This document shows positions 16,955 to 17,958 of a stretch of DNA of 64,000 nt, piece by piece. Numbering within the stretch: the stretch's first letter is position 1; every line of letters begins with the position of its first letter. The position numbers were made by a program, and so were the translations under genes. A model generated the notes under the pieces. It ran no database searches, was not told the origin of the DNA, and saw nothing but the letters and a program-made list of their open reading frames with translations. Source of the DNA: an uncultured delta proteobacterium (lineage in GTDB: Bacteria > Myxococcota_A > Polyangia > Polyangiales > Polyangiaceae); the NCBI GenBank assembly GCA_963841435.1, contig CAWJCS010000006.1, forward strand, positions 1,376,001 to 1,440,000. Reading direction: 5' to 3'.

Positions 16955-17320
16955 ATGCCGAACAAGGGAACTGCCGTCGCTGGGATGCTGACCATCCGCG
17001 GCGTGGAGTACGTCGTCATCCCCAAAGCCGAGTACCTGCGCGTGCAAGACAGCGCGGTCCCTGAAAGCACGATTGATGCTCACGCGTTCGTGCGCGAATC
17101 GATCGCTGGGGATCTTCGAGCCGCGCGCGAGCATGCCAAGCTGACGCAAGCGAGCCTCGCCAAGAAGATGGGCAAGAGCCAGACGTTGGTGAGCCAAGCG
17201 GAGGCCGGCATCGCACGGGTGAGCGAGCGCTACGTTCGGGCAGTGCTCAAGGCTTGCTGCCTTCCCGCCGACTGGTCGGGTTCGAAGGCGAAGCCGCGGA
17301 CACGCGGCAGGAAATCTTAG
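16955..17320 (+). CDS. XRE-family HTH protein (antitoxin-like)
   Basis: EYVVIPKAEY N-terminal motif and LRAAREHAKLTQASLAKKMGKSQTLVSQAEAG HTH. Confidence 0.85.
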   Translation: MPNKGTAVAGMLTIRGVEYVVIPKAEYLRVQDSAVPESTIDAHAFVRESIAGDLRAAREHAKLTQASLAKKMGKSQTLVSQAEAGIARVSERYVRAVLKACCLPADWSGSKAKPRTRGRKS

Positions 17321-17882
17321 CGGTGCGGACGGGACTCGACCCGGCGAGGTGGATCCGCCACTGAAAGGCTGCGTCGCGGAACGCCGGTCGACCTGGTGGC
17401 CCGTAAGGGCGAGGATCGCGACCTTGAGGCAGTCTGCCGAGCAGTGATTGTATTTGACTAGCGGGGCGGACGGGACTCGACCCGGCGCGACGGATCCGCC
17501 ACTGGAAAGCTGCGTCGCCGAACGCCGGTCAACCTGGTGGCCCGTAAGGGCGAGGGTGAAACCTCGAGCTCCGTCGAGGAAGTATGGTCTGCAGTTGTTG
17601 AGCGGGGCGGACGGGACTCGACCCGGCGCGACGGATCCGCCACTGGAAAGCTGCGTCGCCGAACGCCGGTCGACCTGGTGGCCCGTAAGGGCGAGGATCG
17701 CGACCTTGAGGCAGTCTGCCGAGCAGTGATTGTATTTGACTAGCGGGGCGGACGGGACTCGACCCGGCGCGGTGGATCCGCCACTGGAAAGCTGCGACAC
17801 CGAACGCCGGTCGACCTGGTGGCCCGTAAGGGCGAGGATCGCGACCTTGAGGCAGTCTGCCGAGCAGTGATTGTATTTGACT
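17319..17882. repeat. Four 141-bp tRNA-Asp-linked tandem units
   Basis: AGCGGGGCGGACGGGACTCGA at 17319 (1 mismatch), 17460, 17601, 17742 and at the tRNA 3' end (17883); exact 141-bp period. Confidence 0.97.
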
Positions 17883-17884
17883 AG

Positions 17885-17958
17885 CGGGGCGGACGGGACT
17901 CGAACCCGCGGCCTCCGGCGTGACAGGCCGGCGTTATAACCAACTTAACTACCGCCCC
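17885..17958 (-). tRNA. tRNA-Asp (GTC); CCA not encoded
   Basis: GGGGCGG/CCGCCCC acceptor stem, anticodon loop CTGTCAC, GGGTTCGAGTCCC T-arm, discriminator G followed by CTA. Confidence 0.97.

Follow-up and report, generated by a model that had tools for sequence, protein, structure and literature searches.

What is it that a bacterial genome keeps behind a tRNA gene when one block of DNA is repeated there almost unchanged, and the segments between the blocks share their length and differ in content? The question is raised by a locus in the window, i.e. the whole stretch of 64,000 nucleotides analysed here, from an uncultured member of the Polyangiaceae. An initial annotation, made from the letters alone, had proposed for it either the repeated insertion of a tiny non-autonomous cassette or a repeat-spacer-like array. 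The layout, the distribution and the allele homology that we observed point to an array of tRNA-linked repeats (TLRs), in which a core would have been gained at the T-loop, units multiplied by unequal exchange and one linker replaced between diverged alleles, the whole probably being co-transcribed with the tRNA; we hold this combined account to be right with a probability of roughly two in three.

The array behind tRNA-Asp and its surroundings

The array is real and consists of four 141-bp units with linkers in the order A, A, B, A, exactly as annotated. It lies behind the sole tRNA gene of the window, a tRNA-Asp(GTC) without encoded CCA on the minus strand (17884..17958; ARAGORN, Rfam 73 bits), which is the only credible tRNA-Asp of the assembly; a second ARAGORN call for Asp, on C3, has no T-loop motif and was dismissed. 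The units start at 17319, 17460, 17601 and 17742 (spacing 141, 141 and 141), and the one next to the tRNA begins 2 nt past the tRNA end on the same strand, the position of a TLR. Read in the direction of the tRNA, each unit starts with a linker of 45 nt, continues with a core of 75 nt and closes with 21 nt that repeat the tRNA end from the T-loop on. According to the unit alignment, the parts of unit 1 (all features of the array are on the minus strand) are the 45-nt linker with allele A (17838..17882), the 75-nt core (17763..17837), at whose start a vestigial inverted T-loop copy (CTCG) can be seen, and the 21-nt tRNA 3' end copy (17742..17762). Unit 2 again has allele A (17697..17741), followed by core and tail copy (17601..17696), and unit 3 carries the 45-nt allele B (17556..17600) before a core and tail copy (17460..17555) whose core is 75/76 identical to that of unit 2. 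Unit 4 returns to allele A (17415..17459), and its core and tail copy (17319..17414) are the most diverged (core 69-70/76 compared to the others). The 96-nt blocks of core and tail differ at 1-7 positions between units. That this constant block ends in a 21-nt tRNA tail copy had been recognised correctly; the copy is identical to the tRNA 3' end in three units and has one change in unit 4. The accompanying statement that the T-arm is kept apart from one missing T is true of this copy, but 5' of the T-loop junction the letters differ in homologous units. Within the window, five copies of the tail 14-mer are present where 0.21 would be expected, a number reached in 0/100 shuffles, and no other close copy of the 141-bp unit is found in the 7.8-Mb genome.

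It should be noted that unit number and order are those of the assembly alone, since the contigs from four public runs all miss the array; in the runs X1 and X2, identical pieces of the flanks are found at depth 2-3.5 and zero over the array. In these runs, which leave the array uncovered, no joints of an excised circle were seen. The assembly also holds four homopolymer runs of 191-1573 nt, none of them inside the window; long A and T runs (191-1573 nt) are located within two tRNA islands (G000:C2:851351-853368 and C6:1694929-1695473), where they probably are assembly artefacts. Missing coverage and such artefacts elsewhere could be held to favour a wrong number or order of units, which we nevertheless judge very improbable, as the units bear distinct substitutions, B resembles linkers of independent genomes, and an array of two units follows tRNA-Asp in the independent contig L132.

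The units had further been called structured, a description that the data do not support: units, blocks and segments of the array fold no better than shuffles (z -0.7 to +0.9), and 16 cores give a weak consensus fold, two-sided change being seen in 2 of 12 pairs. A candidate helix within the core (8-16 of 16 per pair) was not convincing. When the window and eight related loci were compared with Rfam, only tRNA and tmRNA reached the gathering score. Upstream of the tRNA gene, promoter-like hexamers (TTGAGC, 16 nt, TATGAA) can be read at 17976..18003 on the minus strand, and similar hexamers are present upstream of tRNA-Asp in relatives; a consensus promoter scan did not report this pair, which would represent the start of a transcript of tRNA plus array. 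No terminator-like site was seen between tRNA and array. With promoter-like hexamers on one side and nothing resembling a terminator on the other, transcription probably would continue from tRNA-Asp into the array, and the tail copies would be points of trimming, as the example of RrB in E. coli suggests. RNA runs matched, as contigs, only about 6% of the sequence words.

At its far end, the array meets a convergent Xre/HTH gene of 121 aa (16955..17320, plus strand; Pfam HTH_31, HTH_3), and the last tail copy ends within the stop codon of this gene. A 66% identical homologue in L057 comes after a ParE-family gene and an integrase-like ORF, and in the window a stub of ~19 codons (16887..16952, plus strand) resembles the start of this L057 ParE-family gene, the rest being absent. 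The HTH gene probably is an orphan antitoxin and a neighbour, not part of the repeat; together with the ParE-like stub, it can be read as what is left of a neighbouring mobile element, outside the repeat. A tblastn search for an integrase remnant left of the HTH gene gave no significant match. In the same direction, an AT-rich stretch resembling the start of linker A is followed by three short direct repeats resembling integrase arm sites (16720-16790), and a promoter-like site is located at 16846-16874; the features left of the HTH gene (16720-16790, 16846-16952) probably belong to a decayed element. Elsewhere in the window, we noticed an MqsA-like antitoxin ORF (9925-10377; Pfam E 2e-4, below the cut-off) and a perfect 16-bp tandem repeat of 8.5 copies (3082-3217).

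The two linker alleles

The three A segments are identical, and B agrees with A at 16/45 positions when compared without gaps. To this extent B had rightly been called unrelated to A, but the statement goes too far, given a weak gapped similarity (z about 2.1-2.3, p about 0.02) and the resemblance of each allele to orthologous linkers. Such linkers were obtained from seven other tRNA-Asp loci with this core start: G286, G005 and G273, found without a length filter, and the metagenome contigs L114, L132, L173 and L191, retrieved by a pattern allowing 38-66 nt between its anchors. This pattern yielded 93 stretches; among the 96 loci checked (93 plus three viral) only 4 had a T-loop upstream, four were kept, and these have 53-55 nt between the anchors. 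All nine Asp linkers, A and B included, measure 44-47 nt, and those of different genomes keep their end motifs. Compared to the seven foreign linkers, A reaches a mean z of 3.0 and B of 1.9, whereas both reach 0.2 against 20 tRNA-Asp flanks without TLR; the corresponding p values (2e-5 for A, 0.011 for B) overstate the case, because the genomes from which the linkers come are kin. A is nearest to L114 (z 6.4), then to L132 (3.7), and B to L173 (3.8), G273 (3.4) and G286 (3.2), with no likeness of B to two of the seven (G005 and L132, z 0.2 and -1.0), and the homology of B is modest. No near-identical donor was found for either allele.

These similarities are most simply explained if A and B descend, as diverged alleles, from a single ancestral trailer; they would have inherited their length, so that equal linker length would reflect common descent and not a measuring enzyme. 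Because the seven other linkers also have 44-47 nt, and A is like one group of them and B like another, the two should not be regarded as captured spacers. This bears directly on the proposed repeat-spacer array with acquired content. Constant blocks alternating with variable segments of equal length, of which nine different ones are known across the genomes, might indeed suggest a CRISPR-like array, in which foreign 45-nt spacers had been captured and would be processed at the tail copies into guides. The segments, however, are mutually homologous, keep their end motifs and the inherited length (44-47 nt in 9 variants), and three of four are identical. Searches of viral contigs returned 0 matches for the core and for A, and for B a single 17-mer in an AT-rich contig that does not extend; phages and plasmids contain no match to the array better than E 0.8, and no source of any part of the unit emerged from these searches. 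Cas1 has 0 matches in the genome (95% complete), no effector-like gene was found beside the Asp arrays read, and the same pattern exists at E. coli tyrT. The explanation is largely refuted by these data, and we give it hardly any credit.

Returning to diverged alleles of one trailer, we asked which of them is the older at this locus. All variable sites among the three A units (9/9) fall outside A (chance 0.03). L173 and L191 possess the upstream glycosidase gene of the window (78-80% identity), and L114 and G005 have another gene there. Foreign Asp-type cores are 63-78% alike to those of the window, with L114, L132, L173 and L191 all at 72-78%, and by these figures core identity to the latter four does not separate donor from recipient. 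Most likely, A arrived later and spread over an inherited B, on the thin evidence of a p of 0.03 and the synteny of two contigs. Turnover of linkers beside near-identical cores was also seen in other arrays of the genus, at Leu-GAG (linker 62/85 vs core 78/78), at Arg-ACG (57/71 vs 73/75) and at Leu-GAG of G013 (58/76 vs 78/79). The earlier remark that slippage alone cannot give rise to B holds.

Sister loci, relatives and possible movers

At least twelve tRNA or tmRNA genes of the source genome carry TLR units. Among 57 ARAGORN calls, 50 had a scorable T-loop, and a tail copy, sought within 900 nt, was detected for 12 of these 50; one spurious tRNA call and one next tRNA subtracted, ten unit loci are left (Cys, Met, Arg-TCG, Arg-ACG, Thr-CGT, Leu-GAG, Ser-GCT, Ser-TGA, tmRNA and Asp). 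Beyond these ten, Arg-CCG has three units past an 11.5-kb island, and Ser-GGA one degenerate unit. The common layout is a tRNA tail, a linker of 35-60 nt, an inverted tail copy, a core of ~78 nt and a tail copy; core plus inverted end amount to 75-80 nt at most loci, and in the arrays examined identity with the tRNA begins at the T-loop. As side observations, integrase-free cargo lies between tail copies at two loci (L258/L259 set): 3.7 kb with an L-domain/LRR protein at the tmRNA (G000:C6:282200-286160), where the far boundary includes the core end, and 2.3 kb with a GH8 protein at tRNA-Met (C3:752400-755116). A further short TLR-like unit follows a displaced tail at the far end of an island, ~7.1 kb behind tRNA-Leu(TAG) on G000:C3. 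Remote from the tmRNA gene, G000:C2:33542-33609 holds a tmRNA-type unit composed of the 3' part of the core, the tmRNA tail copy and the flank that follows it, which may be a sign that TLR units can be displaced.

The inverted copy tracks its host tRNA: over 12 loci, it matches on average 9.4 nt of its own tail vs 5.8 nt of the others, a value reached in 0 of 100,000 permutations. It measures 7-16 nt at most sister loci and ~4-5 nt at tRNA-Asp, which is not above its match to the tails of other tRNAs. At tRNA-Thr(CGT) of three genomes, the own match is 11, 12 and 11 nt, compared to 5-7 nt for other tails. The T-stem of this tRNA differs among three congeneric genomes (L265, L280, L293), each downstream inverted copy matching its own, and TLR-bearing tRNAs may have a fast T-stem turnover. 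The Met, Cys and tmRNA units, moreover, fold far better than shuffles (z -8.4, -5.0 and -6.9, respectively). Tracking at twelve loci and three tRNA-Thr alleles, as well as these folds, would be expected if the units were selected small RNAs mimicking the top half of the host tRNA, with the array raising their dose and the linker serving as free spacer; TLRs have no known function according to PMC8144298, which describes the rRNA-linked RrA, RrB and RrF of E. coli as transcribed and processed. The Asp unit, however, folds at chance level with its inverted copy almost lost, covariation in the 16 cores is weak, one core family occurs in both orientations, and cores are absent from most genus genomes searched. 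Template switching can perfect inverted repeats without any selection and flip the spacer between them (PMC5941160 and PMC8604942), and could explain both the tracking and the flipped cores here. We therefore regard selection for small RNAs as an unlikely cause, and keep to a TLR array shaped by recombination.

Regarding distribution, 47 genus genomes were searched with a model of eight Asp-type cores, which gave 18 matches (E<=1e-5) in six of them, each located behind the 3' ends of tRNA-Asp, tRNA-Leu(GAG) or tRNA-Leu(CAG); G273 has an additional truncated Asp unit. In 150 other genomes of the order, no credible Asp-type core was found, the single match not being near a tRNA. A second core family occurs in 8 of 47 genus genomes (E<=1e-8), including the six with the Asp-type core, and points in the tRNA direction behind Arg, Thr, Asn and tmRNA, and is inverted behind three kinds of tRNA-Ser (z 6-12). 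Carriers of the cores within the genus are G000, G005, G013, G014, G273, G274, G279 and G286. An inverted, doubled second core was observed behind tRNA-Ser(GCT, GGA, CGA) in six genomes (L262, L263, L267, L268, L269, L271, L287, L288, L289). Taking the Asp-type core itself for an inverted second core gave z of at most 3.5 and was not accepted. A BLAST search with the unit over 383 family genomes gave 59 with a match at E<=0.01, tRNA linkage being confirmed for only G000, G005, G286 and G279; the unpublished genome G297 is counted in both tallies (383 and 59), and its locus was left out. A loose pattern run over the 383 genomes was not used, its listed matches looking like chance GC-rich ones.

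A three-copy tail pattern over the genome collection returned 20 loci, mostly plain tandem tRNA-Asp genes. In a few Bacteroidota loci (L032, L034, L047 and, in its distal part, L036) the repeats form arrays of a different type; at L032:3946-5900, L036, L034 and L047, tRNA-Asp is followed by degenerate tRNA copies with an inserted hairpin, and one unit of L032 holds a 96-aa GIY-YIG ORF (Pfam E 4e-14), with similar ORF fragments in L036. In other families of the order (L027, L028, L024), tRNA-Asp is followed by a hairpin and another palindromic core, with a tail copy in L027 and L028; these units are TLR-like with a different core. We found no description of such repeats in myxobacteria in the literature covered, from which subscription journals were mostly absent.

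Most relatives have no unit behind tRNA-Asp, and several have tyrosine-integrase islands there, with tyrosine-integrase C-termini immediately after the tRNA and duplicated tails at a distance of 6-8 kb; tRNA-Asp 3' ends thus are integration targets within the genus, as the initial annotation had supposed for this tRNA. The attB sites of phage Mx8 are tRNA-Asp genes, and in L004, L010, L013 and L014 tyrosine-integrase frames run into the antisense of tRNA-Asp, as described for the Mx8 integrase. The source genome contains 13 PF00589 matches, several beside tRNAs, none of which could be tied to the motif, and no other recombinase tied to the array was found. The window, as already stated in the annotation, contains no integrase (no match to PF00589 or PF00239). 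Other candidate movers were dismissed: for RAYT, the flanks of four Y1_Tnp loci have no credible similarity to TLR cores; for GIY-YIG, the single match belongs to a frame of 890 aa remote from the array; and for DUF559, 0 of 8 matches fall in the window. Tyrosine integrases are the best candidates for first having moved cores between tRNAs.

Could the unit itself, then, be an integrative element devoid of genes, a circle of ~141 bp with nothing but attP, which a tyrosine integrase acting in trans would have placed at the T-loop, with A and B as arms of two family members inserted in succession? Each unit does carry a displaced tRNA 3' fragment at its far end, with identity beginning at the T-loop, which the Islander paper names as crossover subsite (PMC4383910). 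The integrase islands at tRNA-Asp of relatives and the PF00589 matches beside tRNAs would suit such an element, as would the occurrence of one core family behind different tRNAs and of the second family inverted behind tRNA-Ser, the tmRNA-type unit without tmRNA at C2:33.5 kb, and the integrase-free cargo of 2.3 and 3.7 kb at Met and tmRNA. On the other hand, the core beside B is 75/76 identical to its neighbour, compared with 63-78% across genomes, so that an independent arrival of B would need later homogenisation; no arm-type direct repeats are visible by eye in the unit, and no own integrase accompanies it; the class is limited, in the genomes searched, to a subset of one genus; and no copy was seen on viral contigs, phages or plasmids. 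We consider this origin doubtful, though somewhat less so than selected small RNAs. Insertion of a tiny non-autonomous cassette, as initially proposed, is still a reasonable explanation for the first arrival of the core at different tRNAs, but the searches revealed no enzyme for it, and the order A, A, B, A can be explained without such insertion.

Origin of the array and its place among known systems

On the reading of a TLR array shaped by recombination, an ancestor of the subclade would have gained a core at the T-loop of tRNA-Asp, recombination duplicating tail and trailer, and unequal exchange between the repeats would have led to four units. DNA from a related lineage would then have replaced a linker by homologous exchange between tail copy and core; most likely, A arrived in this way and was spread by gene conversion, with B left as a relic. 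The array probably would be co-transcribed with the tRNA and trimmed at its tail copies like RrB/RtT of E. coli, yielding by-products of ~140 nt with at most a fine-tuning role. A bolder interpretation, to which we give only a minor chance, regards TLRs in general as enzyme-less mobile modules, whose core of ~78 bp, flanked by one inverted and one direct copy of the T-loop region of the host, would be moved in trans, be re-fitted to each tRNA, flip (as at tRNA-Ser), carry cargo between units (as at tmRNA and Met) and swap its linker as a cassette from lineage to lineage. If this were true, the process might be observed at work in the source genome, where a dozen tRNAs bear two or three core families and one array is a mosaic, and a repeat class lacking explanation since 1978 would be accounted for.

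Several known systems share features with the array. CRISPR arrays likewise alternate constant and variable blocks of fixed length; here, however, the variable blocks are homologous alleles, three of four identical, instead of unique foreign spacers, and neither Cas1 nor targets were found. REP/BIME elements also are short, GC-rich, partly palindromic intergenic tandem repeats, but TLR cores occur almost only at tRNA ends, and neither dispersal over the genome nor RAYT flanks were seen. Islands of tRNA-targeted integrases, tandem arrays included (Islander; PMC4383910), resemble the units in that the tRNA 3' end recurs, from the T-loop on, at a displaced position, and tRNA-Asp is an island target in relatives of the source genome; the units, in contrast, have 141 bp, far less than the 2-kb floor used for islands, and lack integrase and cargo. 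The attB of phage Mx8 (PMC6070905) offers a further comparison for tRNA-targeted integration.

The closest likeness is that to the TLRs of E. coli, for which PMC8144298 reports ten loci with 22 units in all, the last 18-19 bp of every unit being identical to the 3' end of the gene upstream, and cites Egan & Landy 1978 and Rudd 1999; these repeats have been known since 1978. The link drawn in the initial annotation is supported by layout: in both cases gene-less units stand right behind a tRNA, one to five per locus and at some ten loci in a genome (here four units, and twelve loci or more in the source genome), with 18-21 nt of the upstream gene's tail at the unit end and a four-part arrangement of the same kind, whose inverted copy is clear at most sister loci, the linkers differing and the cores being alike. 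The tyrT/tyrV units consist of a 19-nt tail, a 56-59-nt linker, a 9-10-nt inverted copy and a 90-nt core, and between tyrT and the three tyrV units the linkers agree at 28-30 of 62-63 columns (~47%; 56 vs 59 nt) and the cores at 74-75/90 (83%), so that the feature which had attracted attention here, a constant core with a swapped linker, is present at a textbook locus. Cores of E. coli and of the array have no sequence similarity (z 0.5 and 1.1), and RtT (rttR, RF00391) stays below its cut-off of 45 bits, the best hit having 22.9 bits and lying in another part of the genome; the tie is therefore one of layout and design only, not membership in RF00391. The array is a further member of a class already known, whose function is unexplained, and at this locus and its sisters a distant, GC-rich lineage combines the TLR layout with a core of unrelated sequence. 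Caution should accordingly be taken with any constant block that alternates with an equal-length variable segment behind a tRNA, a pattern that marks TLRs and does not, taken alone, indicate a guide array. What is added to the facts on TLRs is that linker length is kept while the sequence turns over, and that the inverted copy tracks the host tRNA. Differences from E. coli exist in the period (141 here vs 175-178) and in the inverted copy, vestigial at tRNA-Asp; above all, the linker alleles are mixed within one array, and this mosaic, together with the orthologues showing an inherited linker length, is what is new here.
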